Shown: positions 3,952 to 24,451, counted from the stretch's first letter. The stretch: 64,000 bases of DNA from an uncultured Staphylococcaceae bacterium (GCA_964541525.1 CAZIQF010000001.1:90553-154552); one strand, 5' to 3'. Notes: a model not told the origin generated them from the letters alone. Made by a program: numbers and translations.

Positions 3952-4626
3952 TTAATTTCCTTTTCTTTTATCAATTTTTTTGGCCAAATAATCAAAACAA
4001 GTTTGAATTACTTGAACGACAATAATTAGAACGATTAATACAATTATCATAACATCTGTTCTAAAGTTATAATGACCTTGATACACTGCTGTGTATCCAA
4101 GTCCTCCCCCACCAACAGTTCCCGACATTGCTGAATAACCAACTAAAGTGATTAATGCAATCGAAACACCCCTAATTAGTGATGGTATACATTCTTTTAA
4201 GTATACCCGCATAATAATTTGTAAATTACTCGCCCCCATACAAACCGCTGCATCGATTACACCTTTAGGGATTTCTCTTAATGATTGTTCAACTAACCTT
4301 GCGATAAAAGGAGTTGAACCAATTACTAAAGGCACAATCATTCCTCTTACACCTAGCGATGTACCTACAATGATTTTAGTAAAAGGAATTAATAGTACTA
4401 GTAAAATCAAAAATGGAATTGATCTTCCTAAATTAACAATCACTGATAAGATTTTATGAATAATACCATTAGGGTGTAAACCATCTTTATCCGTAATGAC
4501 CATTAATACACCAATGGGAATCCCAAGCACATATGCACAGGCACAACTAATAAATGTCATTAAGAGTGTTTCAATTAAACTATCTAATAAATTTATACTA
4601 CTTAAAAGTGAAATTAATTCTTTCAT
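3952..4626 (-). CDS. metI: methionine ABC transporter permease
   Basis: Five-TM ABC permease, 224 aa. Tightly packed between metN and metQ. Confidence 0.85.
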   Translation of the reverse strand: MKELISLLSSINLLDSLIETLLMTFISCACAYVLGIPIGVLMVITDKDGLHPNGIIHKILSVIVNLGRSIPFLILLVLLIPFTKIIVGTSLGVRGMIVPLVIGSTPFIARLVEQSLREIPKGVIDAAVCMGASNLQIIMRVYLKECIPSLIRGVSIALITLVGYSAMSGTVGGGGLGYTAVYQGHYNFRTDVMIIVLIVLIIVVQVIQTCFDYLAKKIDKRKGN

Positions 4627-5394: not shown

Positions 5395-5700
5395 CAAATA
5401 AAAAAACTCATCCTTTATTAATAAAGGACGAGTCAAAATTCACCCGTGTTACCACCTTTGTTCACCTATTTCTTACGAAAATAAGCCTCATCAAGTTCAA
5501 TCCCTAAAGTTATTAAAAATATGTGGTATTATATTTTTCTTTAAGTTGTAAACTTTATCTCGATAACGGGAGAACCCGTAATAGCCTAAATATCGACTAT
5601 TCAACTCCAAGACCATGTTCAGTAACTCTTCTTTATCTTATTTCCACCAACAAAGACTCTCTATATAAGCACGAAATTACTTACTCTTCTTTTCAATGTT
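5395..5700 (-). promoter_or_regulatory. T-box-like leader (putative Met specifier AUG) with intrinsic terminator upstream of metNIQ
   Basis: Minus strand contains 'AAAGGUGGUAACACGGGUG', close to the T-box consensus AGGGUGGNACCGCG. This is followed by a 14-bp hairpin ACTCGTCCTTTATT/AATAAAGGATGAGT plus U7 (plus-strand 5397..5433) immediately before the RBS 'AAGGAGG' and the ATG. Upstream are 'AGAGAG' and 'GAACAUGGUC' (possible specifier loop, AUG at plus 5614..5616). Confidence 0.5.
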
Positions 5701-5814
5701 TTTAAATATACATCATCATTATATACCATTATAACGATTTTTTCATTGAAAATGCTTTATTTATTTTAAAATAAAATCATCTATTTCTTTCTAATAAACT
5801 TGTCAAAAGATTAG

Positions 5815-9737: not shown

Positions 9738-9891
9738 TTTTAAATACCTCTTTCCATCCTGAATATTTGTATATTACAAATATCTTACTTTCATTATATC
9801 AATTTCTCTTATTAATTTCAATGAATTTATTAATAAATATGGTAAAAGGCAAATTAAATATCCAATTTAACTTGCCTTTTATCTTTTACAA

Positions 9892-11337
9892 TTATTTTTT
9901 GTTTGAATTAACTAAATTAAAGATAGCAATTGCATCAGTAATGTTCTTTTCATAAGCTTCTTGTCCATACTTATCAACTTCTGCTTTATCTTTAGGGCCA
10001 TGAGTTAAACAACCAGCTCCACCAATACAGCCACCAATACATGCCATGCCTTCAACAAAATTAGCATCAAGCATATTTCGACGTTTTTTAAGTAAGGCAA
10101 TTTTACATTCATCAATTCCATTACAAGCAATTGGTTTCACTTCAAAATCTTCAATGTTTTGTTCCTTTAGTGCTTGTCTTACTGCATCAGATAATCCACC
10201 TGATCTAGCAAAAATTCTGCCATAATAAGATGCATTATCTAATACATCTAAATCTAATGTCGTAATATCTAAATCTTTACTATCAAATAATGCTTGTAGT
10301 TCTTCGAAAGTTAATACTTCATCAACATAATCCTTGACCACTTCTTGTCTTATTTCCATCTTTTTAGCTGTACATGGACCAATAAAGATCACTTTACATG
10401 TCGGATCTAATTCTTTTAAATATTTAGCAATTGTCGCCATCGGCGATAAATTATGCGAAATAAGTGGTTCTAAATCAGGAAAATCCTTTCGGACATACGC
10501 TACAAATGCTGGACAACAACTACTAGTTAGAAATCCTTTTTCCGCTAATTCTTGAGATTCACTTTTAGCTACCATATCGGCACCTAAGGCTGCTTCAATT
10601 ACTGTATAAAATCCTAGTTGTTTTAATCCAGTAATAACTTGACCTAATTTTGCATAGGTAAATTGACTAGAAATAGATGGTGCTACCACTGCATAAACTT
10701 TATAATTTTGATTATTATTACTCTTTTTAATTAAATCAATTACATCAACAATATATGATTTATCTGAAATGGCTCCAAATGGACATTGATATACACAGGC
10801 ACCACAAGCAATACATTTATCATTGTTGATTTTGGCTTCTTTATTTTCACCCATCGAAATTGCTTTTACTTTACAAGCTGTTTCACATGGACGTTTATAA
10901 TTGTGAATTGCCGAATATGGACAAACCTTAGCACAGGCACCACATTCTATACATTTAGTTTTATCAATGTGTGCTACGTGATTACTATCAAATGTAATTG
11001 CTCCTCTTGGGCATGCTTCTTCACAGCGATGAGCTAAACATCCACGGCATGAATTAGTTACTTCATAACCACCCATTGGGCATTCATCACAAGCACTTTC
11101 AATTACCTCAATAACATTGGGATTACTGCGATCACCACCCATTGCTAATTTTACTCGATCAGCAATAATTGCTCTTTCTTTGTAAACACAACAACGCATT
11201 GTAGGAATTTTACCTGGAACGATTTTTTTGGCAATATCTAATAAATTTTCTTGTAATGTATCATTCCAAGCTTCACGTGCGACTTCACGTAATACTTTAT
11301 ATTTTATATGTTGGACTTTTGTATCAAATTTTTTCAT
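9892..11337 (-). CDS. [FeFe]-hydrogenase-like protein (HydA homologue, HfsD-like; N-terminal multi-[4Fe-4S] + H-cluster domain)
   Basis: Ferredoxin motifs 'CIECGACAKVCP' and 'CIACGACVYQCP'. H-cluster motifs L1 'TSSCCPAF', L2 'GPCTAKKME', L3 'EGMACIGGCIGGAG'. Confidence 0.75.
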   Translation of the reverse strand: MKKFDTKVQHIKYKVLREVAREAWNDTLQENLLDIAKKIVPGKIPTMRCCVYKERAIIADRVKLAMGGDRSNPNVIEVIESACDECPMGGYEVTNSCRGCLAHRCEEACPRGAITFDSNHVAHIDKTKCIECGACAKVCPYSAIHNYKRPCETACKVKAISMGENKEAKINNDKCIACGACVYQCPFGAISDKSYIVDVIDLIKKSNNNQNYKVYAVVAPSISSQFTYAKLGQVITGLKQLGFYTVIEAALGADMVAKSESQELAEKGFLTSSCCPAFVAYVRKDFPDLEPLISHNLSPMATIAKYLKELDPTCKVIFIGPCTAKKMEIRQEVVKDYVDEVLTFEELQALFDSKDLDITTLDLDVLDNASYYGRIFARSGGLSDAVRQALKEQNIEDFEVKPIACNGIDECKIALLKKRRNMLDANFVEGMACIGGCIGGAGCLTHGPKDKAEVDKYGQEAYEKNITDAIAIFNLVNSNKK

Positions 11338-11348
11338 TTTATCTTTTC

Positions 11349-12521
11349 CTAAAAATAACTAACTTTTATTCTTTTTCCCATTGCTTTTAAGTATTTTGTT
11401 AGTTCTTCAACAAGATTCATTTTAATACTAAAGTTGATTGGCAAATCGGGATTTTGGTGAGCTGGATTAATGGCTCGACCAACATAGAAATTAATATCAG
11501 TTGCTTCTTCAAATAAGATTCTTGATATTAATGATGCTCCATCTTTTTTATAGCACCAGATATTATATAATTTATTTTCTTCCGTATAATCTTTAGCATA
11601 TTCAACAACACGGTTCATGGTAATCACACCTTCAGTTACTAAGTCTACACCTTCAATTTTTGCAATCGGTGGCATATCACTATCTTCAAAAGATAATGTT
11701 GCTTCAACTTTTTTACCTAGGTATTTAGCTGCGATTGATGATGTTGTACCTCCACATACAATATGTTTACCTTCTTTTGCGAAGAATAATGCCATCATTC
11801 TATTTCCATCATTTTTATCTGATGAAGGCCCAAATAAGATATTGACTGGTTCACGCTTTCTAATTTTAATGACACAAGCAGTTGCATCATCTCCTGGTTC
11901 AAAACCATATAGTTTATTACATTCATCAATTAACATTGTTGACATCGTCTTAGCTGTATAACCACCAGCATTAATGCTAACTAAAAACTCAGCGATATCT
12001 TCAATTTTCCATCCGAAATTATAAGCAATCCCAATACCAGCATGAGGACAACCATCACTCATTGTAATGATGGCATCTCCTTCTTCTAAATTGATGATTG
12101 ATTTGATAATTTTTTTGCCACCCATAATCAATTCTTGTTTTGGATAATCATAAATTTCATTATTTCTAATAAATAAAATTTGGGGATTGTCATACTGAAT
12201 TAATTCTGCTTGTTCATTATCTTTAATATGAATAATGGAAAATGTTGAATAGGCAACACCACGAACCGAACAAATTGGTAAAGTTGCAGCAATCGTATCA
12301 ACACATGATTCAAGTGATAATCCTGCAGATAACATTGTTGAAATAATCTTTGATGTTAGTGTTGATAAAATACTTGCTTTTACACCACTACCTAATCCAT
12401 CTGCTAGAACTACAATTGTTGAACCATCTGGCTGTTCAACAACATCAATGTGATCACCACATAGTTCCTCGCCATAATGGTTGACACTTTTAAAGCCAAT
12501 ATCAGCACATAGATTATTCAT
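11349..12521 (-). CDS. PP2C-family Ser/Thr phosphatase (SpoIIE/RsbU-like, HfsC-like)
   Basis: 'VLADGLGSGVKAS', 'ITMSDGCPHAG', 'GDDATACVIKI'. Start overlaps the HydS stop by 8 nt. Confidence 0.8.
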   Translation of the reverse strand: MNNLCADIGFKSVNHYGEELCGDHIDVVEQPDGSTIVVLADGLGSGVKASILSTLTSKIISTMLSAGLSLESCVDTIAATLPICSVRGVAYSTFSIIHIKDNEQAELIQYDNPQILFIRNNEIYDYPKQELIMGGKKIIKSIINLEEGDAIITMSDGCPHAGIGIAYNFGWKIEDIAEFLVSINAGGYTAKTMSTMLIDECNKLYGFEPGDDATACVIKIRKREPVNILFGPSSDKNDGNRMMALFFAKEGKHIVCGGTTSSIAAKYLGKKVEATLSFEDSDMPPIAKIEGVDLVTEGVITMNRVVEYAKDYTEENKLYNIWCYKKDGASLISRILFEEATDINFYVGRAINPAHQNPDLPINFSIKMNLVEELTKYLKAMGKRIKVSYF

Positions 12522-14196
12522 CTTTAATCGACTCCTTTAATTTAGTTAAAGCAATCTTAGTTTCAGCTGCTGTTTCACCTAGTAATGATGCTATTTCTTG
12601 GACGATTCGCATTTGACGTTCAACTACTTTATCAGCAATTTCAACAGTTTGTTTGCTGATTGATTCTTTTTTCGATTTTTCGATTGTCGCTTCAGTTACG
12701 TCACGCATTAAACAAATTAATAAGTGCGAAGTATCATCATATAAGATTGATTGTTCAACATATTTATCATATTCAGCCAAATAGATGCGTTCATTCTTAA
12801 TATTACATTTGGAATCCAAAACTTTAATAAATGGTAATGGATCCAGAATGCGAACAACTTGATCACCTAAAATATCTGATTCAAAACGAATATGTAACAT
12901 TTTTTTAGCTGCTTCATTTATTTGTTGTACTTCTAAACAATCATTTAAAACAATAATTCCATTAGGGGTATTTTTAACAATGCTGTCGGAGAAACTTTCA
13001 GCTTTATCTTTTAAGAATGGTAAACACATCGAAATTTCGGCTTTACCTTGGAAAATTGCTACTGCTTTGGCCCGACATGTACTATAACCACATGAACCAC
13101 AATTTAGTTCATCACTAGGTTTAAATTTCCCCATTTGTTTTAAAATTTGTTCAATTTCATAATTAGTTGGTTTTAATTCATTAACCATAATTGGTGAAAA
13201 TTGTTTTTGGAACAGTTGTGAATTACCACTACTAACAATAAAATCATTAGTACCAGCATATTTCGTTACTAATTGGAAATCACGAATATGCGATGAATGG
13301 TATTTTTCCATAATTGGTCCACCAATACAACTACCAACACATGCCGACATTTCAATAAAGCAATTGCTTACCTTTCCTGCTTCAATATCTTTTAATGTTT
13401 GAATACAGTTTTCTACTCCATCAATCGCTAAATAAGTGTATTTAGGATTATCACAAGCCATCGTTTTTAAGATACCACCAGTTGTTGGAAACAATCTGGC
13501 TTTAGAGTTAATATTATTTTCTTCATTTGGAGTCTTTTCAATGGTAATTTTTTCTTCTTTTAACCAATTGGTTAATTCTTCAAACGTTAAAACGCAATCG
13601 ACAATACCTTCATATCTTGAACCTTCATCTTTTTTTGCTACGCAAGGCCCTACAAAAATCGTTTTGGCATTTGGATATCTTTTTTTGATATCAGTACAAT
13701 GTGCTTGCATTGGTGTCATTACATTTGCTAAATATTTTAATGCATGAGGGAAGTATTTTTGAATAAGCAAATTAACAGAATGACAACAAGAAGAAATTAG
13801 AATATCACTATTTCCTTCTTTTAAAATGCGATTATATTCATTTTTAACAAAAGTTGCACCAATTGCTGTTTCTTCAACATCATATACTCCCAATTTTTGT
13901 AGGGCTGCTCTAATTGATTCAATCCCGATACCATCATAATTTGCAATAAATGATGGTGCTAAACTAACAATTACTTGTTCATTTGACTTTAAAAGTACTT
14001 TTGCCTTTTCGATATCATTAACGATTTCTTTAGCATTTTGCGGACATACTACAAAGCATTGTCCACATAAAATACATTCATTTTCAATAATATGTGCTTG
14101 ATTAGCGGAAAATCGAATTGATTTAACTGGACAATGTCTAATACATTTATAGCAGTTTTTACAATTTGATTTTTTTAATTTTAGAAATGTAGCCAT
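12514..14196 (-). CDS. sensory [FeFe]-hydrogenase (HydS/HfsB-like) with C-terminal PAS domain
   Basis: N-terminal 2x[4Fe-4S] ('CYKCIRHCP', 'CILCGQCFVVCP'). H-domain L1 'SSCCHS', L2 'GPCVAKKDE', L3 'EMSACVGSCIGGP'. Extra 'CGSCGYSTC' cluster. C-terminal PAS-like segment. Confidence 0.75.
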   Translation of the reverse strand: MATFLKLKKSNCKNCYKCIRHCPVKSIRFSANQAHIIENECILCGQCFVVCPQNAKEIVNDIEKAKVLLKSNEQVIVSLAPSFIANYDGIGIESIRAALQKLGVYDVEETAIGATFVKNEYNRILKEGNSDILISSCCHSVNLLIQKYFPHALKYLANVMTPMQAHCTDIKKRYPNAKTIFVGPCVAKKDEGSRYEGIVDCVLTFEELTNWLKEEKITIEKTPNEENNINSKARLFPTTGGILKTMACDNPKYTYLAIDGVENCIQTLKDIEAGKVSNCFIEMSACVGSCIGGPIMEKYHSSHIRDFQLVTKYAGTNDFIVSSGNSQLFQKQFSPIMVNELKPTNYEIEQILKQMGKFKPSDELNCGSCGYSTCRAKAVAIFQGKAEISMCLPFLKDKAESFSDSIVKNTPNGIIVLNDCLEVQQINEAAKKMLHIRFESDILGDQVVRILDPLPFIKVLDSKCNIKNERIYLAEYDKYVEQSILYDDTSHLLICLMRDVTEATIEKSKKESISKQTVEIADKVVERQMRIVQEIASLLGETAAETKIALTKLKESIKDE

Positions 14197-14206
14197 ATTT
14201 AACCTC

Positions 14207-14458
14207 TTATTTTAATTTAGGAGCAATAACTTCCTCCCAAAATTTTTCTATAGTTAATGGGGTAATGCCCGGATAAACGCAATCATCTACGATAATTGTT
14301 ACACCATTACGATTGCATTTACCCGCACAAAAACTTCCTGATAAGATGATTTGATCATCTAATGCTTCTTTTTCAATTCTCTTGTTTAAATATTCAACGA
14401 TTTCTGGAGAATTCTTTAAAAAACATGAACTTCCAATACAGACTTTAATTTCAATCAT
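14207..14458 (-). CDS. thioredoxin-like [2Fe-2S] ferredoxin (HfsA/NuoE-like)
   Basis: 83 aa with a C-x4-C ... C-x3-C pattern ('CIGSSC', 'CAGKC'). Confidence 0.6.
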   Translation of the reverse strand: MIEIKVCIGSSCFLKNSPEIVEYLNKRIEKEALDDQIILSGSFCAGKCNRNGVTIIVDDCVYPGITPLTIEKFWEEVIAPKLK

Positions 14459-14459
14459 A

Positions 14460-14705
14460 TTATTGAAGTTTTGCTAGAACATTTTTTTCAAAGAATTCAT
14501 TTACATTTTCCACATTTACGGAAAAGAATTCTTCTCCAACTTTAACGCAAACACCTTCTTGGCATCTACCCATACAGAATGTTCCACCTAATTCAACTTT
14601 ATCACTTAAATTATTTTTTGAAATCAAATATTGAATTTGTTCTACAACTTGTCTTGAACCTTTAATATGACAAGAACTTCCAATACATACTGTTATTTTA
14701 ATCAT
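14460..14705 (-). CDS. thioredoxin-like [2Fe-2S] ferredoxin (paralogue of 14207..14458)
   Basis: 81 aa with 'CIGSSC' and 'CMGRC'. Tandem duplicate 1 nt upstream of its paralogue. Confidence 0.6.
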   Translation of the reverse strand: MIKITVCIGSSCHIKGSRQVVEQIQYLISKNNLSDKVELGGTFCMGRCQEGVCVKVGEEFFSVNVENVNEFFEKNVLAKLQ

Positions 14706-14725
14706 TTTAATCTAATTCCTTTCTT

Positions 14726-15481
14726 CTATTCGTAATCAACGACATTAGCCCAAGATAATAAGAATTCTCTTTCTTTTTCATTACCTTTAACCGATTGAGA
14801 TACTGCAACAATTGGTAACCATCTTTGAACATCTTTCTTTAAGTGATTACTCTTATCACAATATAAGTTTAAATATTTATCAGCAGTTGAAATATCACCG
14901 GCTAACCAGAATAATAGATATGTTCTAGCTGCATCAGCACATGGATTACCTTGAGTAGCATGTGACCAGTCAATGATATAAGCTTTACCATCTTTACCAA
15001 TAATAATATTTGAAGGGTTAAAGTCACCATGACATACCGATGATCCTTTAGGCATACTTTCAAGTCTTGTATGTAAGTCATATTTTGTTGTTGGTGAAAC
15101 ATTAGCAATACTAATTTTTTGAGTAAATTTATCTTTTAATTTTGTTAATAATGGACTCTTATTGCTTTGAACCATAATTTGTAATTCAACAAATTGTTCT
15201 AAATATTCATCCTTTTGTTCTGGATGTTTTTCCATTAATGCAGCAAGTGTATCACCTTCAATATATTCAGTAATAATTGCCCATTTTCCTTCAACAGTTT
15301 CAATTGATTTAATCTTTGGTACATTGATTGTTAATTCTTCAACACGTGCTTGATTTAAAGCTTCATTTAAAATATCAGCTTTTGAATAGTCTGCATTGAA
15401 TAATTTAATACAATTATCATTATCTTTATAAACAGTTTTAGCGTTTCTAATCGCAATAATTTTTTCAAGATTCATTATCAT
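14726..15481 (-). CDS. APH/choline-kinase-fold phosphotransferase (putative protein kinase)
   Basis: Brenner motif 'HGDFNPSNIII' and 'IIDWSHA' (catalytic and metal-binding Asp). 251 aa. Confidence 0.6.
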   Translation of the reverse strand: MIMNLEKIIAIRNAKTVYKDNDNCIKLFNADYSKADILNEALNQARVEELTINVPKIKSIETVEGKWAIITEYIEGDTLAALMEKHPEQKDEYLEQFVELQIMVQSNKSPLLTKLKDKFTQKISIANVSPTTKYDLHTRLESMPKGSSVCHGDFNPSNIIIGKDGKAYIIDWSHATQGNPCADAARTYLLFWLAGDISTADKYLNLYCDKSNHLKKDVQRWLPIVAVSQSVKGNEKEREFLLSWANVVDYE

Positions 15482-15492
15482 TACCTCGTTTC

Positions 15493-18183
15493 CTATTTAT
15501 TTTTACGATAAAGATTTTTGAAATCATTATCTTCTTCTTTATTAACTACACATTGAGCTGGAACTTCTTTTTCAATAAAAGTTTTTCCATAATAAGCATT
15601 TAAGTACATTTGTTTGATTTCACTCATTAATGGATATCTAGGATTAGCACCTGTACATTGATCATCAAATGCTTGTTCAACCATTTCATCTAATGAACTC
15701 ATGAATACTGCTTCATCTGCTACATAATCTTTGATTGTAGATTTGATTCCAACTTTAGCTTTTAGTTCATCAATCGCTTTAATTAGATTTTCGACTTTTT
15801 CCTCATTTGTTGATCCACCTAAACCTAAATGAGTAGCAATTTCAGCATATCTTGCCATTGTATGAGGATGATCATATTGGGAGAATGTTCCCATCTTATG
15901 TGGAACATCTGATGCATTAAATCTAATTACTTCATCAATCATTAAAGCATTAGCAACACCATGAGGAATATGATGGAATGCACCTAATTTATGAGCCATT
16001 GAGTGACATACACCTAAGAAGGCATTAGCGAAAGCCATACCTGCCATAGTAGCTGCATTAGCCATTTTTTCTCTTGCAACAGGATTATTTTGACCATCTT
16101 CATAAGCAACTGGTAACCATTCAAAAATAATTTTTAAAGCACCTAAAGCTAAACTATCTGTATATTCAGTTGCAAGCATTGAAGCATATGCTTCGACTGC
16201 ATGAGTTACAGCATCAATACCAGATGCAGCAGTTAAACCTCTAGGAGCAGTCATATGGAAATCTGCATCAACAATGGCCATATTAGGTAATAATTCATAA
16301 TCAGCAAGTGGATATTTGATACCAGTAGTTTCATCAGTAATTACTGCAAATGGAGTAACTTCTGAACCTGTACCAGCTGATGTTGGAATTGCAATAAAGT
16401 ATGCTTTTTCACCCATCTTAGGGAAAGTATAGATACGTTTTCTAATATCCATGAAACGCATAGCCATATCCATAAAGTCTACTTCTGGATGTTCATATAA
16501 TACCCACATAATCTTAGCAGCATCCATTGCTGAACCACCACCTAATGCAATAATACAATCAGGTTTGAATGAAGCCATTTGTTCAGCACCTTTTTTAGCA
16601 CAAGCTAGTGTTGGATCTGGTTCAACATCATAGAACACAGCACTTTCGATATTTAATTCTTTTAATTTGTTAATAATTGGCGTAGCATGTCCGTGTGTAT
16701 ATAAGAAATTATCTGTAACAATAAATGCACGTTTTTTATTCATCACAGTCTTTAATTCATTTAAGGCAACAGGCATACAACCTTTCTTTAAGTAAACTTT
16801 TTCTGGAGCTCTAAACCAAAGCATATTTTCCCTTCTTTCTGCAACTGTTTTAATATTGATTAAGTGTTTTACACCAACATTTTCTGATACACTATTTCCA
16901 CCCCAAGAACCACAACCAAGAGTTAGTGATGGTGCAAGTTTAAAGTTGTAAATATCACCGATACCACCTTGTGATGATGGTGTGTTTACTAAAATACGAC
17001 ATGTTTTCATGCGAGCTGCAAATTCATTAAGTTTATCTTGTTCAGTTAATTCATTAATATAAATTGATGAAGTATGTCCATATCCACCATCAGCAATTAA
17101 TTGTTCAGCTTTACTAAATGCATCTTTAATTGATTTAGCTTTATACATTGCAAGTACTGGTGATAATTTTTCATGAGCAAATTCTTCACTTAATTCAACT
17201 GAAGAAACTTCACCAATTAATACTTTTGTACCTTCTGGAACACTAACGCCAGCGATAGCAGCAATTTTAGCTGCAGGTTGACCAACAATTTTAGCGTTTA
17301 ATGAACCATTAATAATAATTGTTTTTCTTACTTTATTTAATTCATTATCATTTAGGAAGTAACAACCACGAGCAGCAAATTCATATTTAACTGCATCGTA
17401 AACATTTTTATGAACAATTACTGATTGTTCAGATGCACAAATCATCCCATTATCAAAAGTTTTTGAATGAATAATTGAGTTTACTGCAAGAATAATATCA
17501 GCAGTTTCATCGATAATTGCAGGAGTATTACCAGCACCTACACCAATTGCAGGTTTACCTGAAGAGTAAGCAGCTTTTACCATCCCTGGGCCACCAGTTG
17601 CAAGAATAATATCGGCTTCTTTCATTACTGTATTAGTAAGTTCTAGACTAGGAACATCAATCCAACCAATGATTCCTTCGGGAGCACCAGCTTTAACAGC
17701 AGCTTCTAAAACAATTTTAGCAGCAGCAATTGTTGAATTCTTAGCACGTGGATGTGGACTAATGATGATTGCATTTCTTGTTTTTAATGCAAGTAAAGCT
17801 TTAAAGATCGCAGTTGAAGTTGGATTTGTAGTAGGAATAACGGCAGCAACAACACCGATTGGTTCAGCAATTTTCTTAATTCCATAAGCTTTATCTTCTT
17901 CAATAACACCACAAGTGATAGTATCACGGTATTGATTATAAATATATTCAGATGCATAGTGATTTTTAATAACTTTATCTTCGACAACACCCATTCCTGT
18001 TTCTTCAACAGCAAGTTTTGCAAGCGAGATACGAGCATTATTTGCAGCAAGTGAAGCTGCTAAAAAGATTTTGTCTACTTCTTCTTGAGTATAAGTAGCA
18101 TATTTACATTGAGCTTTTCTTAAATTTTCTAATTTTTTTGATAAACTTTCTAAGCTATCTACAATATCATAATTTTTGTTCAT
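15493..18183 (-). CDS. adhE: bifunctional acetaldehyde-CoA / alcohol dehydrogenase
   Basis: ~895 aa with ALDH and Fe-ADH halves. Preferred start ATG at 18183 ('MNKNYD') with AGGAGA 7 nt upstream. The ORF track has an N-terminal over-extension to 18201. Confidence 0.9.
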   Translation of the reverse strand: MNKNYDIVDSLESLSKKLENLRKAQCKYATYTQEEVDKIFLAASLAANNARISLAKLAVEETGMGVVEDKVIKNHYASEYIYNQYRDTITCGVIEEDKAYGIKKIAEPIGVVAAVIPTTNPTSTAIFKALLALKTRNAIIISPHPRAKNSTIAAAKIVLEAAVKAGAPEGIIGWIDVPSLELTNTVMKEADIILATGGPGMVKAAYSSGKPAIGVGAGNTPAIIDETADIILAVNSIIHSKTFDNGMICASEQSVIVHKNVYDAVKYEFAARGCYFLNDNELNKVRKTIIINGSLNAKIVGQPAAKIAAIAGVSVPEGTKVLIGEVSSVELSEEFAHEKLSPVLAMYKAKSIKDAFSKAEQLIADGGYGHTSSIYINELTEQDKLNEFAARMKTCRILVNTPSSQGGIGDIYNFKLAPSLTLGCGSWGGNSVSENVGVKHLINIKTVAERRENMLWFRAPEKVYLKKGCMPVALNELKTVMNKKRAFIVTDNFLYTHGHATPIINKLKELNIESAVFYDVEPDPTLACAKKGAEQMASFKPDCIIALGGGSAMDAAKIMWVLYEHPEVDFMDMAMRFMDIRKRIYTFPKMGEKAYFIAIPTSAGTGSEVTPFAVITDETTGIKYPLADYELLPNMAIVDADFHMTAPRGLTAASGIDAVTHAVEAYASMLATEYTDSLALGALKIIFEWLPVAYEDGQNNPVAREKMANAATMAGMAFANAFLGVCHSMAHKLGAFHHIPHGVANALMIDEVIRFNASDVPHKMGTFSQYDHPHTMARYAEIATHLGLGGSTNEEKVENLIKAIDELKAKVGIKSTIKDYVADEAVFMSSLDEMVEQAFDDQCTGANPRYPLMSEIKQMYLNAYYGKTFIEKEVPAQCVVNKEEDNDFKNLYRKNK

Positions 18184-18197
18184 AATATTTCTCCTAT

Positions 18198-18818
18198 TCA
18201 ATTATTATTTATTTCGATTGATAAAATTGCTAATGATGCCGCAATATCAATATTTCTTACTTTGACATCATCATTAACAATTAATTTCTGATTTGTAAAA
18301 TTTAAAATACCTTTAATCCCAACTGCTGTAACTTGATCACATACGCTTTGAGCAACATCAGCTGGAACTGCTAAAATAGCAATTTTAACTTTACTAAAAT
18401 TTGTTAATTCATCAATTGATAAAATTGGATGATTATTGATTGACTTACCAATTAATGATTCATCATTATCAAACAATCCCACTATGCTAAACCTGTTTTC
18501 TTCAAATCCATCATACATTGCGAGGGCTTTACCAATTTTACCAGCACCGATAATAACTACATCGTTTGTCCCAGATTGACCAATAAGTGTATCGATTTTA
18601 GTCTTTAAATCCGTTACATAATACCCAATTTTAGGTTTACCATTACCAGCAATTAAGTTAAGATCTTTTCTTACCTGCACTTCACCTAATCCTAAGTCCA
18701 TTGCTAATTTGGTCGATGAGATCATTTCAATCTGCTTTTTCTCTAAACATTTCAAATAATTGGCATAAAGCGGTATTCTTTCAATGACTGATTTAGGAAT
18801 ATTTTTGTTACTATTCAT
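18198..18818 (-). CDS. rex: redox-sensing transcriptional repressor Rex
   Basis: Winged-helix N-terminus and Rossmann 'VVIIGAGKIGKAL'. The ORF track start at 18836 is GTG; the ATG at 18818 with AGGAAG RBS is preferred. Stop lies 14 nt before the adhE start. Confidence 0.85.
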   Translation of the reverse strand: MNSNKNIPKSVIERIPLYANYLKCLEKKQIEMISSTKLAMDLGLGEVQVRKDLNLIAGNGKPKIGYYVTDLKTKIDTLIGQSGTNDVVIIGAGKIGKALAMYDGFEENRFSIVGLFDNDESLIGKSINNHPILSIDELTNFSKVKIAILAVPADVAQSVCDQVTAVGIKGILNFTNQKLIVNDDVKVRNIDIAASLAILSIEINNN

Positions 18819-18881
18819 TACGCATCTTCCTTTCACACTAATAGTATATCATAATAAAATATAAATGTAAAATATAAAAAA

Positions 18882-18912
18882 AGTATATCGATATATCAAT
18901 ATCGATATACAA
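18882..18912. promoter_or_regulatory. tandem ATATCGATAT palindromes between lysR-type gene and rex
   Basis: 'TATATCGATATAT' and 'ATATCGATAT' separated by ~5 nt. No T-run follows. Confidence 0.25.
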
Positions 18913-18916
18913 ATAT

Positions 18917-19846
18917 CTATTTACTAATTTTAACCCTTCTTTTACTCTCACAAAGACAAGTAATGAAGTCTTTTTCTAATTTAGTTAATTTATGTGAAGA
19001 TTTATAAATTAACAAATCTTTATACACCCGGGTTTGATCAACACATGTTCTTTGAACAAGACCATATCGATTTAAAGTAGCTTCTGGAATCGGTGAAACC
19101 CACATAAATGTTTCATGATTTTCGGCTAATAGTTCAAACTGACTAGCTCGTTCAAAAACAAAAATCCTTCTACTTACCTTACTAGTTAATTCCATTTTTG
19201 TTACTTCTGACATTGGAATTTGCGGAACATATGAATCCTTATGCGCAATTTCAATATAATTAACTAAATCATCGGTTGTAATTATTTCATTTTCAGCAAG
19301 TGGTGAATCTTTACTAAAAACCAAAACATAATTAAATTCATGAATTAACTCACTTGTTAAATCTTTTTTCACAAGCATCTCTTTAAAATAATTATCGTAA
19401 TTAATATCATAACGAATAATACCTAATTTATAATCTGCATTAATAATATTATTAATTGCTTTATAAGCATTCGTTTCTTTATAAATCAATTCGACATTAT
19501 CAATTTTCGAAAGAATCTTCGAAAATTTTGCGAAAGCATCAGAAACATAACTAGACCTAGGAACAGAGATTGAGAAAACATTTTTACTTGCATTGTCACC
19601 AAATGAATTTTCAAGTTCATCAATTTGCTTTAAGATTTTCTTCCCATACATAATTAACTTTTCACCATCAGGTGTAATTACAAGTCCTTTAGAATTACGA
19701 TCAAAAATCGCAATGTTTAATTCATTTTCTAATTCTTTAATTGCACGTGATAAATTAGGTTGTGCAACATATAATTTTTCTGCTGCTTTACTCATTGAAC
19801 CTGTTTCAGCAACCATAATTGCATATTTTAAATGGATAATATTCAT
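18917..19846 (-). CDS. LysR-family transcriptional regulator
   Basis: N-terminal HTH 'SMSKAAEKLYVAQPNLSRAIKELE'. 309 aa. RBS GAGAGGTG. Confidence 0.85.
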   Translation of the reverse strand: MNIIHLKYAIMVAETGSMSKAAEKLYVAQPNLSRAIKELENELNIAIFDRNSKGLVITPDGEKLIMYGKKILKQIDELENSFGDNASKNVFSISVPRSSYVSDAFAKFSKILSKIDNVELIYKETNAYKAINNIINADYKLGIIRYDINYDNYFKEMLVKKDLTSELIHEFNYVLVFSKDSPLAENEIITTDDLVNYIEIAHKDSYVPQIPMSEVTKMELTSKVSRRIFVFERASQFELLAENHETFMWVSPIPEATLNRYGLVQRTCVDQTRVYKDLLIYKSSHKLTKLEKDFITCLCESKRRVKISK

Positions 19847-20867: not shown

Positions 20868-21163
20868 TGCTGTTTATAATTCATTTAACCAATAACGTGA
20901 CCCAGCATTATTTACAATTAAATCAATTATTTCCTCCTCTTATTTTAGATTAGGCAAGTCTCCTGACTTAACATCATCCCATTATTAACCTTCTCAAATC
21001 AAAATTCAATGGTATTAAAATAATAGTCCGTATTCACAGTTGCTGGCACAGTTTAAGCTTTTCACTTAGATTCCTTATTAAGTTTAACTAAAAACACCTA
21101 ACATTGATTATTATATCATTTTTTGCTGCTTTATACCAATATTTTAATTGAACAATCAAAATA

Positions 21164-21763
21164 TTATGATTCTTTTAATAAATTAATTAAGATTTTTCCA
21201 CATGTTAATGCATCATCACAAGCACGATGGGCATTTTTATTAATAATTTTATAATATTCCGCTACAGTAGCTTGTTTATAATTGGGTAAAAACAACTTAT
21301 TTCTTGCAATCTTCAAAGTATCAATATAACGAATAATACCATTATAACCTAACCTTTCTAGAGTATTTGAAATAAACCCCATATCAAATGATGCATTATG
21401 AGCACATACGATGACATCACCAGTCAACACCTTTTCAAAAAACTTAACAAATTTAGCATAGACAATAGCTTCATCATCAGCTTTTTTTATCATCGTATTT
21501 GTAATGTTATTTACTTTCGTGACCTGTGGCGTAATTATACAATGGGGGTTAACTAAAGAGGAAAAACTTTCATTTGCTAATTGCTTAACAAACAATACCG
21601 CACCTAATTCAATAATACGATCGTTAGTACATGAAAATCCAGTCGTTTCTACATCAAATGCCATAAATGTCGTATTTAATTCATCAATAATATTTTTAGT
21701 CAATCTTTCTTCAATCAGTTTAATTTTACCATATTCTACTTCTTCAAAAATATTATAATTCAT
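21164..21763 (-). CDS. DEDDh 3'-5' exonuclease (DnaQ/epsilon-like)
   Basis: Exo I 'FDVETTG', Exo II 'CAHNASFD', Exo III 'HRACDDA'. Preferred start 'MNYNIF' at 21763, with AAGGA upstream. Confidence 0.7.
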   Translation of the reverse strand: MNYNIFEEVEYGKIKLIEERLTKNIIDELNTTFMAFDVETTGFSCTNDRIIELGAVLFVKQLANESFSSLVNPHCIITPQVTKVNNITNTMIKKADDEAIVYAKFVKFFEKVLTGDVIVCAHNASFDMGFISNTLERLGYNGIIRYIDTLKIARNKLFLPNYKQATVAEYYKIINKNAHRACDDALTCGKILINLLKES

Positions 21764-21899: not shown

Positions 21900-22120
21900 A
21901 AAAGTAAATAGAGGTAGCGTTGCAAATGAGTAACATTAGCTAGCAGGCATGCGATGATCTAATGAGAAAGGTAATCAACGCCGAATAAAATAATTAGGCA
22001 TAATTATTTTATGGGGTTATAGAGAATATCTATAACACTCCTACAATTAATATTGTAGAGGCGCTAGACTAAAATATCAAAAGGTATTAAAAAGCGTCTA
22101 GCACGCTTTTTTTGTTTTTT
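21900..22120 (+). promoter_or_regulatory. structured leader with terminator/antiterminator alternative upstream of amino-acid ABC operon
   Basis: Terminator AAAAAGCGT-CTAGC-ACGCTTTTTTT (22088..22117) sits immediately before the RBS. The upstream 'GCGCTAGAC' is complementary to 'GTCTAGC' of the terminator 5' arm and loop. Class not identified. Confidence 0.4.
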
Positions 22121-22139: not shown

Positions 22140-22973
22140 ATGAAAAAATTATTTTTATGCTTATTATTAAGTATTTGTTGTTGTAGCTTAACAAGTTGTA
22201 AAAAAGCACAATTTAACGAAAAAGAAGGAGTTATAACGATTGGTCTAGAATGTAACTATGCACCTTTTAATTGGGCCGAAACTAAACCAACTACAACTAA
22301 TGTCAAAGTAACTGGAGCGTCTAATATGTACGCCGAAGGTTATGATGTAATGATTGCAAAAAGAATTGCTGAACAATTAGGTTATGAACTAAAAATTAAA
22401 GCAATTGATTGGAACGGATTAGTACCTGCATTAACATCTGGTGATATTGATCTAATTATCGCTGGAATGAGTCCAACTGCTGAACGTAAGAAAGTAATTA
22501 ACTTTACTGATGAATATTATCGCTCTAATCATGTCTTACTAATGAAAAAATCTAGTGTATACGCAAATGCAAAAACATTTGATGATTTAAATAACGCTAA
22601 AGTAATTGGTCAAAAATCAACATCATATGATGAACTTGCAAAACAAATTGCTGAAAAGAATTCATCAACTATATATCAAAATCCACTTAATACAATTCCT
22701 GAGATTATTATTTCACTTACTTCTAACGCATCGGATATTACTGTTCTAGAAGAACCTGTTGCAAGAGGAATTGTTGCAAAATATCCTGAATTCACTTATA
22801 TCCAACTAGAAAGTGCTTTTGATATTCTAGAAGAAAATTTAATTGTTTCAATCGGTGTCAGAAAAATCGATGAAGCACTTTTAGTGGCAGTAAATAGTGC
22901 ACTTGCAAATATTTCTCAAGAAGAAAGAAATAATATTATGCAAACTGCTATTGGGCTACAAAATGAGGAATAA
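22140..22973 (+). CDS. amino-acid ABC transporter substrate-binding lipoprotein
   Basis: Lipobox 'LTSC'. SBP_bac_3-like, 277 aa. Confidence 0.8.
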   Translation: MKKLFLCLLLSICCCSLTSCKKAQFNEKEGVITIGLECNYAPFNWAETKPTTTNVKVTGASNMYAEGYDVMIAKRIAEQLGYELKIKAIDWNGLVPALTSGDIDLIIAGMSPTAERKKVINFTDEYYRSNHVLLMKKSSVYANAKTFDDLNNAKVIGQKSTSYDELAKQIAEKNSSTIYQNPLNTIPEIIISLTSNASDITVLEEPVARGIVAKYPEFTYIQLESAFDILEENLIVSIGVRKIDEALLVAVNSALANISQEERNNIMQTAIGLQNEE

Positions 22974-22974
22974 T

Positions 22975-23700
22975 ATGGAGCTTAACTTTTTATCTTATTC
23001 TGTTGTCTTAAGAGAATACGGAATTTTATTTGCTGATGGTGTTTTAATCACCTTATATCTTGCAATTTTTGGAACCATAATCGGTTTCATTTTGGCTTTA
23101 ATTTTAGGAACAATACGCGTTCAGACCATTAATCCAACTGATTCTAGATTTGTTAAGGGAATTAAACGCATTGGTTTAGTCTTTGTTAAAACTTATGTTA
23201 CTATTTTTAGAGGAACACCAATGATTCTACAAGCATTCATCTTCTTCTATGGTTTTAAAACAATCGGCATTAATTGGAGTGCGAATCTTGCAGGATTATT
23301 TACTGTTTCCCTAAATACTTCAGCATATTTAACCGAAGTGATTAGAGGTGGAATTGAATCAATTGACAAAGGACAAATGGAAGCGGCACGGGCGATGGGG
23401 ATGAGTCAAACTAAAGCGATGATTTATGTAATCTTCCCACAAGCACTTAAAAATTCAATGGCTTCAATTGGTAATGAATTAATTATTAACATTAAAGATA
23501 CCGCTGTACTTAGTACAATTGGAATTATTGATTTATTCTCAACTATTGAAACCGTAACTGGAAGTACACTTCTTTATTTAGAAGCATATTCCATTGGAGC
23601 AATTATTTACTTAATTCTTACCCTTGGTTCTTCTAAACTATTAATGTTATTAGAGCGCAAAATTGGTGCTCCAACTAAAGAAATAACTAGTTGTAATTAG
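22975..23700 (+). CDS. amino-acid ABC transporter permease
   Basis: '[10 protein letters not shown]' EAA motif. Preferred start ATG at 22975 with AGGAATAAT upstream. The ORF track is over-extended to 22897. Confidence 0.8.
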
Positions 23701-23710
23701 TGAGGTAACT

Positions 23711-24451
23711 ATGGAACCTATATTTAAAATTAATAATTTAACTAAATCATTTGATAATGAAGTTATTTTAGACAATATCAACCTAACCATCAATAAAGGT
23801 GATATTATATCAATTATCGGTCCATCCGGTTCTGGTAAATCAACATTACTTAGATGTTTGAACTTATTAAATATTCCTGATAGTGGTGAAATTTATTTTC
23901 ATAATCAAAACATTATCACTAATCCTAAGCAATTAAACAATTTAAGAACTAAAATCGGGATGGTTTTTCAATCATTTAATTTGTTCAACAATATGAATGT
24001 ATTACAAAACCTCATCATTGGTCCTACCAAAATCTTAAAAATGCCTAAGGCGGAGGCTATCGCTAATGCTAAAGAATTATTAAAACTTGTTGGATTAGAA
24101 GGATTTGAAAATCAAAGAGTTCAAACATTATCTGGTGGACAAAAACAACGCGTTGCGATAGCAAGAACATTATGTATGAAGCCAGAAGTAATCTTATTTG
24201 ATGAACCAACCAGTGCATTAGACCCAGAAATGATTGGTGAAGTTCTAGATGTCATTAAAAAATTAACAACTAAAGATATGACATTAATTATTGTTACTCA
24301 TGAAATGAGTTTTGCTAAAGAAATTAGTAGTCGTGTCGTTTTTATGGCCGATAGCAAAATTATCGAAACTGGAACTCCTACTGAAATCTTCGAACATCCT
24401 AAATGTGAACGAACTAAAAACTTTTTAGAACGCTTTAATAATCAAAAATAG
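23711..24451 (+). CDS. amino-acid ABC transporter ATP-binding protein (GlnQ-like)
   Basis: 'GPSGSGKST', 'LSGGQKQR', '[11 protein letters not shown]'. Confidence 0.85.

Follow-up and report, generated by a model that had tools for sequence, protein, structure and literature searches.

Do a putative hydrogen sensor, an NADH-sensing repressor and an ethanol-forming enzyme that are encoded side by side on one strand form one regulatory unit, and if so, what would that unit sense and control? The question is raised by a stretch of DNA from an uncultured Staphylococcaceae bacterium (GCA_964541525.1, CAZIQF010000001.1:90553-154552), here called the window, meaning the whole 64,000 nt that were analysed, in which all coordinates are positions unless stated otherwise. 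On its minus strand, between 9892 and 18818, eight genes lie back to back in the order rex, adhE, a gene for an APH-fold kinase, two ferredoxin genes (fdx1 and fdx2), hydS for a PAS-containing [FeFe] hydrogenase, pp2c for a PP2C phosphatase and a gene for a second [FeFe] hydrogenase. We put at roughly 0.7 the probability that the region from about 18871 to 9843 on this strand is one operon, orthologous to the H2-responsive cluster of Ruminococcus albus 7 and with homologues of hfsB, hfsC and hfsD. The sensing of H2 and the switch between acetate plus H2 and ethanol in strict anaerobes matter for the hydrogen economy of the rumen and gut, for the amount of methane released and for the engineering of ethanol production.

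A probable operon with a published counterpart

Genes were assigned by Pfam and NCBIfam profile searches, with scores read against the curated cutoffs. An earlier note on this DNA had described eight genes on one strand with minimal gaps, and all of them are present, their families backed by Pfam and NCBIfam; the 14 nt that it gave between rex and adhE and the 8-nt overlap of the phosphatase gene came out the same when the spacings were recomputed. In the direction of transcription, the genes and the features that flank them are:

18917-19846, minus strand: LysR-type transcriptional regulator (PF00126 HTH_1, E 2.1e-21), co-oriented and directly upstream
18883-18910, minus strand: dyad or hairpin after lysR, a perfect 12-bp inverted repeat GTATATCGATAT-TGAT-ATATCGATATAC followed by seven T
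18843-18871, minus strand: sigma-70-like promoter, TTTACA, 17-nt spacer and TATACT, with TG upstream (10/12 in a consensus scan; prediction only)
18198-18818, minus strand: rex, redox (NADH/NAD+)-sensing repressor, 206 aa (NF003994, 205 bits against a cutoff of 130)
15493-18183, minus strand: adhE, bifunctional acetaldehyde-CoA/alcohol dehydrogenase, 896 aa (NF010378, 1391 bits against a cutoff of 951)
14726-15481, minus strand: APH-fold phosphotransferase/kinase, 251 aa (PF01636, E 5.8e-15)
14460-14705, minus strand: thioredoxin-like [2Fe-2S] ferredoxin 1 (NuoE/HoxE-like), 81 aa (PF01257, 28.8 bits against a cutoff of 24.8)
14207-14458, minus strand: thioredoxin-like [2Fe-2S] ferredoxin 2, 83 aa (PF01257, 28.7 bits), 1 nt past ferredoxin 1
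12514-14196, minus strand: HydS, putative group-C sensory [FeFe] hydrogenase, 560 aa (Fer4 pair, Fe_hyd_lg_C, PF04060, PAS)
11349-12521, minus strand: PP2C/SpoIIE-family phosphatase, 390 aa (PF07228, E 1.5e-14), overlapping hydS by 8 nt
9892-11337, minus strand: group-B monomeric [FeFe] hydrogenase, 481 aa (TIGR04105, 573.5 bits against a cutoff of 450)
9843-9881, minus strand: intrinsic-terminator-like hairpin at the end of the unit, a 17-pair stem and then a T-rich tail

Counted from rex, the gaps between successive genes are 14, 11, 20, 1, 10, -8 and 11 nt, where -8 is the overlap of hydS and pp2c, and a Shine-Dalgarno sequence is visible before most genes of the unit. A terminator scan found none between genes inside the unit, its sole minus-strand match being a weak 5-pair stem in the coding sequence of adhE, and promoter-like matches inside the unit numbered 55 against 67 expected from shuffles, that is, below expectation. 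The gene that follows the unit (9737-9186) has a strong promoter of its own at 9821-9793 (11/12 matches). The unit as outlined in the earlier note holds, with one small correction to its extent: the start of rex is more likely the ATG at 18818 than the GTG at 18836, because the ribosome-binding site AAAGGAAG precedes the ATG.

The linkage of rex, adhE and hydS is already published, gene for gene, as the eight-gene cluster of R. albus 7. The cluster is also attributed to Zheng et al. 2014. We found the R. albus 7 copy by a protein search of PLSDB and compared the annotated NC_014824.1 region with the window by tblastn. It occupies 137906-147916 of pRUMAL01 (RUMAL_RS17350-17385), a 421-kb, MOBP-mobilizable megaplasmid, where the annotation reads LysR, Rex, AdhE, phosphotransferase, two (2Fe-2S) ferredoxins, [Fe-Fe] hydrogenase, SpoIIE phosphatase and 4Fe-4S dicluster protein. 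All nine genes, lysR included, are collinear with those of the window and in the same orientation, and they are as tightly packed (gaps of 16, 15, 17, 5, 10, -8 and 16 nt), with the same 8-nt overlap of hydS and pp2c. The L1 motifs of the two hydrogenases, SSCCHS and TSSCCPAF, are identical, the same TATCGATA dyad stands upstream, and neither copy has a canonical Rex box. Identities between the two are 55% for LysR, 40% for Rex, 73% for AdhE, 62% for the kinase, 67% for HydS, 75% for the phosphatase and 74% for the second hydrogenase. While the R. albus copy is carried on a megaplasmid, the window looks chromosomal and its host appears to be low in GC and not a Ruminococcus. In co-culture with an H2 consumer the eight-gene cluster of R. 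albus 7 was down-regulated 111-fold (PMC6776011, Greening et al. 2019), and the sensory hydrogenase has been described as co-transcribed with AdhE and the ferredoxin-only hydrogenase (PMC6776011).

Distribution among relatives

A scan with a HydS alignment, keeping one genome per species, gave 80 related loci (loci of this family carry numbers of the form L0xx where they have to be told apart), onto which the proteins of the window were mapped by tblastn. They belong mostly to uncultured gut and rumen Clostridia (Acutalibacteraceae, Oscillospiraceae, Ruminococcus), and their HydS is about 70% identical. Among the 56 loci with at least 4.6 kb of sequence upstream of hydS, adhE was found in 35, the kinase gene in 44, rex in 29 and lysR in 39; the full series lysR-rex-adhE-kinase-fdx-fdx is present in 19, lysR-adhE-kinase-fdx-fdx in 12 and rex-adhE-kinase-fdx-fdx in 4, the others being shorter. 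Two ferredoxin genes stand directly before hydS in nearly all loci, and pp2c followed by the second hydrogenase gene lies downstream in 67 of the 68 loci with enough sequence on that side. Judged by this gene order, lysR belongs to the conserved neighbourhood of the cluster. The eight-gene arrangement is not due to chance, since dozens of independent genomes share this order. The earlier note had further placed the H2-sensor module, the phosphatase/kinase pair, rex and adhE in one transcriptional neighbourhood, and this is supported by gaps of no more than 20 nt, by the lack of an internal terminator, by the conserved order and by the reported co-regulation of the R. albus orthologue. The contigs of L032 and L074 are labelled Methanocorpusculum sp. 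and Sphaerochaetaceae bacterium, most likely through an error of binning or labelling.

The host appears to have about 29% GC, and the closest relatives that bear a name carry the labels Bacilli, Mollicutes or Coprobacillus. Ten large ORFs in the flanks yielded no housekeeping marker from which its taxonomy could be fixed. The block from lysR to the second hydrogenase gene lies in differing genomic contexts in L085, L086, L087 and the window, and AdhE is about 80% identical between Bacilli-labelled and Clostridia-labelled metagenome-assembled genomes, as is the AdhE of the window to that of Clostridia loci. The differing flanks, together with the mobilizable plasmid of R. albus, are consistent with horizontal transfer of the whole cassette, which the sequence comparison suggests. 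This is no new kind of system; rather, the arrangement of R. albus proves to be widespread in uncultured gut Firmicutes, and the close relatives labelled Bacilli, Mollicutes or Coprobacillus would extend it beyond Clostridia. What is modestly new is the breadth of the full nine-gene neighbourhood, its occurrence in a low-GC lineage and a promoter architecture of a dyad with a lineage-dependent Rex box.

Two hydrogenases of different kinds

HydS was aligned to CpI and to the structures of the bifurcating HydA of Thermotoga maritima and Thermoanaerobacter. Its L1 motif SSCCHS (residues 135-140) aligns with TSCCPx, and C138, C185, C286 and C290 align to C300, C355, C499 and C503 of CpI, so that the four H-cluster cysteines are kept. 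Relative to CpI, Met353 is replaced by G183, Met497 by S284, Ser319 by A157 and Pro301 by His; a single Glu (E120) stands for Glu279 and Glu282, two alignments differing on which of them it matches, and Arg286 has no counterpart. Sensory [FeFe] hydrogenases have been reported to carry Gly or Ser at Met353 and a residue other than Met at Met497, with Cys at position 299 in about 17% of them (PMC10055695). The sequence indicates that HydS binds an H-cluster, with the second-sphere substitutions of slow sensory [FeFe] hydrogenases; with SSCCHS, Gly for Met353, Ser for Met497 and a broken proton pathway it carries the sensory signature and is a putative sensor. The motifs (S/T)SCCHS, GPCVAKKDE and EMSAC.GSC are essentially invariant over the related loci, and none of the H-cluster ligands varies across about 80 of them. 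Behind the H-domain, a Cys4 FeS motif occupies residues 366-391 (PF04060 match at 364-393, E 1.9e-11) and a marginal PAS_8 match residues 405-461 (21.3 bits for the whole protein and 22.7 for the C-terminal fragment, against a cutoff of 21.8). In the last 50 or so residues (window 12514-12670) a helix after the PAS domain is nearly invariant among HydS proteins whose overall identity is 70-100%; this helix may serve as a contact surface for the phosphatase.

The sensory hydrogenase of T. maritima, TmHydS, is reported to have been characterised biochemically by Chongdar in 2018. It shares with the window protein an N-terminal [4Fe-4S] part, an H-domain, a C-terminal Cys4 cluster and a PAS domain, as well as Gly at Met353 and Ser at Met497 (Gly177 and Ser267 in TmHydS; PMC10055695). 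The two differ at the Cys299 position, where TmHydS has Ala while HydS of the window keeps Cys, and at Pro301, for which the window protein has His. They differ also in their genomic partners, sensory hydrogenases in thermophiles usually lying upstream of trimeric bifurcating hydrogenases (PMC3561251).

The second hydrogenase spans positions 1-461 of the 462 of TIGR04105 ("monomeric [FeFe] hydrogenase", B1) and stays below cutoff on the group-A model TIGR02512 (150 against 406). Likewise, HydA2 of R. albus (L082; 146480-147916 of pRUMAL01) scores 577 bits on TIGR04105 and falls below cutoff on the group-A model, and the label "group A1" that Greening et al. gave to the R. albus hydrogenase (PMC6776011) is at odds with this profile result. 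The L1 motif of the window enzyme is TSSCCPAF (271-278), one residue longer than in group A and without the upstream Pro294. Group-B enzymes are described with TSCCCP in CpIII and ToHydA, a one-residue insertion in L1 and the upstream Pro missing (bioRxiv 10.1101/2025.03.17.643706). In the window enzyme and all of its approximately 68 orthologues, TSSCCP has Ser in place of the extra Cys of group B; by sequence the enzyme is a member of the TIGR04105 family outside the strict TSCCCP (M2a) subtype, and the Cys-dependent O2 protection described for ToHydA may consequently not apply to it. E260, E263, K267, S294, C274 and M431 align to E279, E282, R286, S319, C299 and M497 of CpI, and the Met353 position is Gly, as in CpIII. 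With a group-B profile and an intact proton pathway, the protein is likely of catalytic type and not a second sensor, and we predict a ferredoxin-linked enzyme. HydA2 of R. albus has been described as a ferredoxin-dependent hydrogenase (PMC11837493), and the homologous HfsD as a group-B enzyme and likely the main H2 producer (PMC8924675).

The earlier note had held that both hydrogenases depart from the L1 consensus. The motifs SSCCHS and TSSCCPAF bear this out, and the alignment of H-cluster motifs places neither protein among ordinary group-A enzymes; the second one cannot, however, be kept as a sensor-like deviant, given its group-B register and its equivalents of Cys299, Glu279, Glu282, Ser319 and Met497.

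Phosphatase, kinase and the remaining proteins

The metal-binding Asp motifs of the phosphatase are present as ADGLGSG (40), SDG (155) and GDDAT (210), and the active-site motifs of both kinase and phosphatase are intact, the kinase having the catalytic loop HGDFNPSN (151) and IDW (170). An AlphaFold model of the phosphatase (pLDDT 73) matched SpoIIE best in Foldseek (5mqh, E 6.5e-13), and also RsbU (3ke6) and RsbX (3w40), so that its N-terminal domain is modelled as a PP2C of the SpoIIE/RsbU/RsbX type. The C-terminal 170 aa (window 11349-11858) form an alpha/beta domain that is about 80% conserved between classes, with CGGTTS, EGVDLVTEGVIT and GRAINPAHQNPDLPINF invariant; for this domain the Pfam search returned no match and a structure search of the PDB no significant neighbour. 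The nearest solved sequences to the kinase are a choline kinase and an APH-family protein. Rex has the recognition helix QVRKDL at residue 48 and the Rossmann motif GAGKIG at residue 91. The cysteines of ferredoxin 1, read from the translation, are C7-X4-C12-X31-C44-X3-C48, and ferredoxin 2 has the same C-X4-C-X31-C-X3-C pattern.

A conserved dyad and a lineage-dependent Rex box

Upstream of the predicted promoter, the core of the dyad (18886-18907) reads TATCGATA-N6-TATCGATA and ends 11 nt before the -35 element. Its RNA folds with -15.3 kcal/mol (z -4.4), and it occurs once in the window. The 1.37 Mb of related loci hold 32 copies of the pattern TATCGATA-N5-9-TAYCGATA, where shuffles give about 3, and 26 of the 32 lie upstream of the first gene of the cluster at a distance of no more than 350 nt, for the most part 84-121 nt from rex. 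It is present at L082 (R. albus 7; about 4270-4300 of that locus), L085-L087, L067, L018, L038 and others; in the close relatives L085-L087 it is followed by TTTACA as in the window, and adhE-first clusters carry the variant TATCATTTTTGATA.

That the dyad is merely the terminator of lysR was rejected as the sole explanation. Conservation extends beyond its pairing to its sequence, even between genomes that differ widely in GC content; several loci, R. albus, L017 and L044 among them, have a distinct GC-rich terminator ahead of the dyad, and the dyad is also found in loci without lysR nearby. It may be an operator, perhaps doubling as lysR terminator, and the LysR-type neighbour is the obvious candidate for the protein that binds it. 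The literature, searched in full text for an operator known by this sequence, gave nothing relevant, and such a conserved element close upstream of the -35 seems to be undescribed so far. A Fur box was also considered; GATAATGATAAT in L017 resembles one only partially, and it is absent in the window.

Rex operators were sought as TTGTTAA-N4-TTAACAA or TTGTGAA-N4-TTCACAA, that is, in the clostridial and the general form, with up to 3 mismatches. The earlier note had pointed to the lysR-rex and adhE-proximal regions as places for such an operator, but the scans found none at this threshold, neither in the 98-nt gap between lysR and rex nor before adhE; over the 230 nt that precede rex, the closest match departs from the consensus at 4 positions and falls within lysR. 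Control of the window copy by Rex is thus unsupported. A Rex box of the TTGTTAAAATAWTAACRA type (up to 2 mismatches, 65-160 nt upstream) precedes all 12 adhE-first orthologous clusters, which have no rex in cis, and 7 of the 31 rex-first ones, the rate among random 230-nt windows being about 0.9%. R. albus 7 and the closest relatives of the window, L085-L087, are also without it. The comparison set therefore yields two regulatory elements that can be tested, the conserved dyad and the lineage-dependent Rex box. Over the whole window, the best Rex-box match is TTGCTAATTGCTTAACAA at 21574-21591 (1 mismatch), which lies inside an RNase T/DnaQ-like exonuclease gene and is probably fortuitous.

Relation to the hfs operon of Thermoanaerobacterium

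The hfsABCD operon of Thermoanaerobacterium reportedly goes back to Shaw 2009. Its proteins were compared with those of the window through their published descriptions. The operon, known from T. saccharolyticum and T. thermosaccharolyticum, resembles the window cluster in its PAS [FeFe] hydrogenase HfsB, its phosphatase HfsC and its ferredoxin-linked group-B enzyme HfsD, as well as in a regulatory link to adhE and ethanol yield. HydS of R. albus has been equated with HfsB and HydA2 with HfsD, HfsC being a Ser phosphatase (PMC5707799, PMC11837493), and deletion of hfsB raised both the adhE transcript and the ethanol yield (PMC5707799). In the thermophile, however, adhE (Tsac_0416), rex (Tsac_2615) and hfs (Tsac_1550) are unlinked, and no kinase has been described in the operon. 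HfsA is reported to align poorly with known proteins, whereas the window has two clear thioredoxin-like ferredoxins before hydS. In T. saccharolyticum, hfsABCD and adhE each have a predicted Rex site upstream (PMC5886521).

What the cluster may sense and how

In the mechanism that we propose, HydS and the two small [2Fe-2S] ferredoxins would report the level of H2 (or the H2/ferredoxin redox level) via the Cys4 cluster and the PAS domain, and HydS would signal to the PP2C phosphatase, whose gene, to judge from the conserved 8-nt overlap, is probably coupled translationally to hydS. The phosphatase would oppose the APH-fold kinase on a putative phospho-target, and the phosphorylation state of that target would set transcription from the dyad-containing promoter, the output being, as the R. 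albus data suggest, transcription of the operon itself. At high H2, a condition in which the bifurcating hydrogenase would be unable to dispose of NADH, AdhE would be made to drain NADH into ethanol, and the group-B hydrogenase would be made to drain ferredoxin into H2. Rex would add an input from NADH/NAD+ in relatives with a canonical Rex box over the -10, a box that is missing in the window, and the dyad upstream of the -35 would be the best candidate site for an H2-dependent regulator, possibly the adjacent LysR-type protein.

Carried to its full extent, the proposal makes of the lysR-to-hydB block (hydB being the second hydrogenase gene) a self-contained, horizontally mobile, H2/NADH-gated ethanol switch with a two-input promoter, in which a dyad operator is combined with a Rex box over the -10. 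The signal from HydS and the phosphatase/kinase pair would act through TATCGATA-N6/7-TAYCGATA, perhaps via the LysR neighbour; lineages such as those of the window and R. albus, with rex in cis, would have lost the Rex box and would rely on the dyad alone; and the phosphatase would have in its near-invariant 170-aa C-terminal domain a new signalling partner or target domain. Taken jointly, these claims are tentative, and we consider the switch as a whole possible but doubtful.

Several points weigh against an H2-responsive operon in the window. Besides the missing Rex operator, the operon structure is, for this organism, a prediction from the DNA; the PAS match of HydS sits at the Pfam threshold; and H2 sensing by any HydS is still termed putative (PMC8924675). 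HydS retains the proton-relay Cys137, equivalent to Cys299, as just about 17% of sensory hydrogenases do (PMC10055695), so that appreciable turnover may occur. Profile searches of the unit found that it encodes no STAS or GHKL partner and no other obvious phospho-acceptor, and the kinase is closer to small-molecule kinases (choline kinase, APH) than to Hanks-type protein kinases; since its nearest sequences are of the choline kinase/APH family, its substrate could be a protein or a small molecule.

There are other explanations of the same genes. HydS, the two ferredoxins and the group-B hydrogenase might be one multi-subunit catalytic "Hfs hydrogenase", with HydS as an electron-transfer or second catalytic subunit and with the kinase and phosphatase acting post-translationally. 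All four H-cluster cysteines and Cys137 are kept in HydS, as such a complex would lead one to expect, the small ferredoxins look like NuoE/HoxE, which are subunits of multimeric hydrogenases, and deletion of hfsA or hfsB in T. saccharolyticum alters alcohol dehydrogenase activity beyond the change in transcript, suggesting post-transcriptional effects (PMC5707799). We nevertheless think a single catalytic complex unlikely: HydS lacks Met353, Met497, Ser319, one of Glu279/Glu282 and Arg286, which is the slow sensory pattern (PMC10055695), deletion of hfsB raised hydrogenase activity and hfsD alone gives the phenotype (PMC5707799, PMC11837493), and a PAS domain together with a coupled PP2C is a hallmark of signalling.

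It is also conceivable that the module senses the cellular redox state, that is, the ferredoxin or NADH pool and not H2, the H-domain being a redox-poised FeS/PAS sensor fed by the ferredoxins. Nearly all loci have kept two dedicated genes for low-potential ferredoxins immediately upstream of hydS, Rex, another redox sensor, belongs to the same unit, and the PAS domain of HfsB has been described as possibly responding to redox potential (PMC11837493). Yet the H-cluster ligands are strictly conserved over about 80 loci, which argues that the [2Fe] subcluster, and so the binding of H2, matters, and fermentation and cluster expression in R. albus follow H2 levels (PMC6776011); a sensor of redox state alone is in our estimate quite improbable. 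Finally, the genes might be mere neighbours, with rex-adhE as an ordinary Rex-controlled unit and the genes from the kinase to the hydrogenase as a second operon driven by a promoter of its own. In some loci, for example L083 (Monoglobus), the hydS core stands without adhE or rex, and 7 loci have only fdx-fdx upstream, so that the parts are separable modules in evolution. In the window, however, the gap between adhE and the kinase gene is 11 nt and holds no terminator or credible promoter, the adjacency of adhE recurs in 35 of 56 loci, and the R. albus cluster acts as one unit in RNA-seq (PMC6776011), which leaves simple adjacency with very little probability compared with the single H2-responsive operon that we favour.

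Other features of the window

Further structured leaders were seen outside the unit. A cobalamin riboswitch (20936-21116, minus strand) lies upstream of genes for two small membrane proteins (20867-19913, no Pfam match), which directly precede lysR. A lysine riboswitch (21901-22071, plus strand) stands upstream of an amino-acid ABC transporter (22140-24451), and a T-box leader (5421-5705, minus strand) upstream of another ABC transporter operon.

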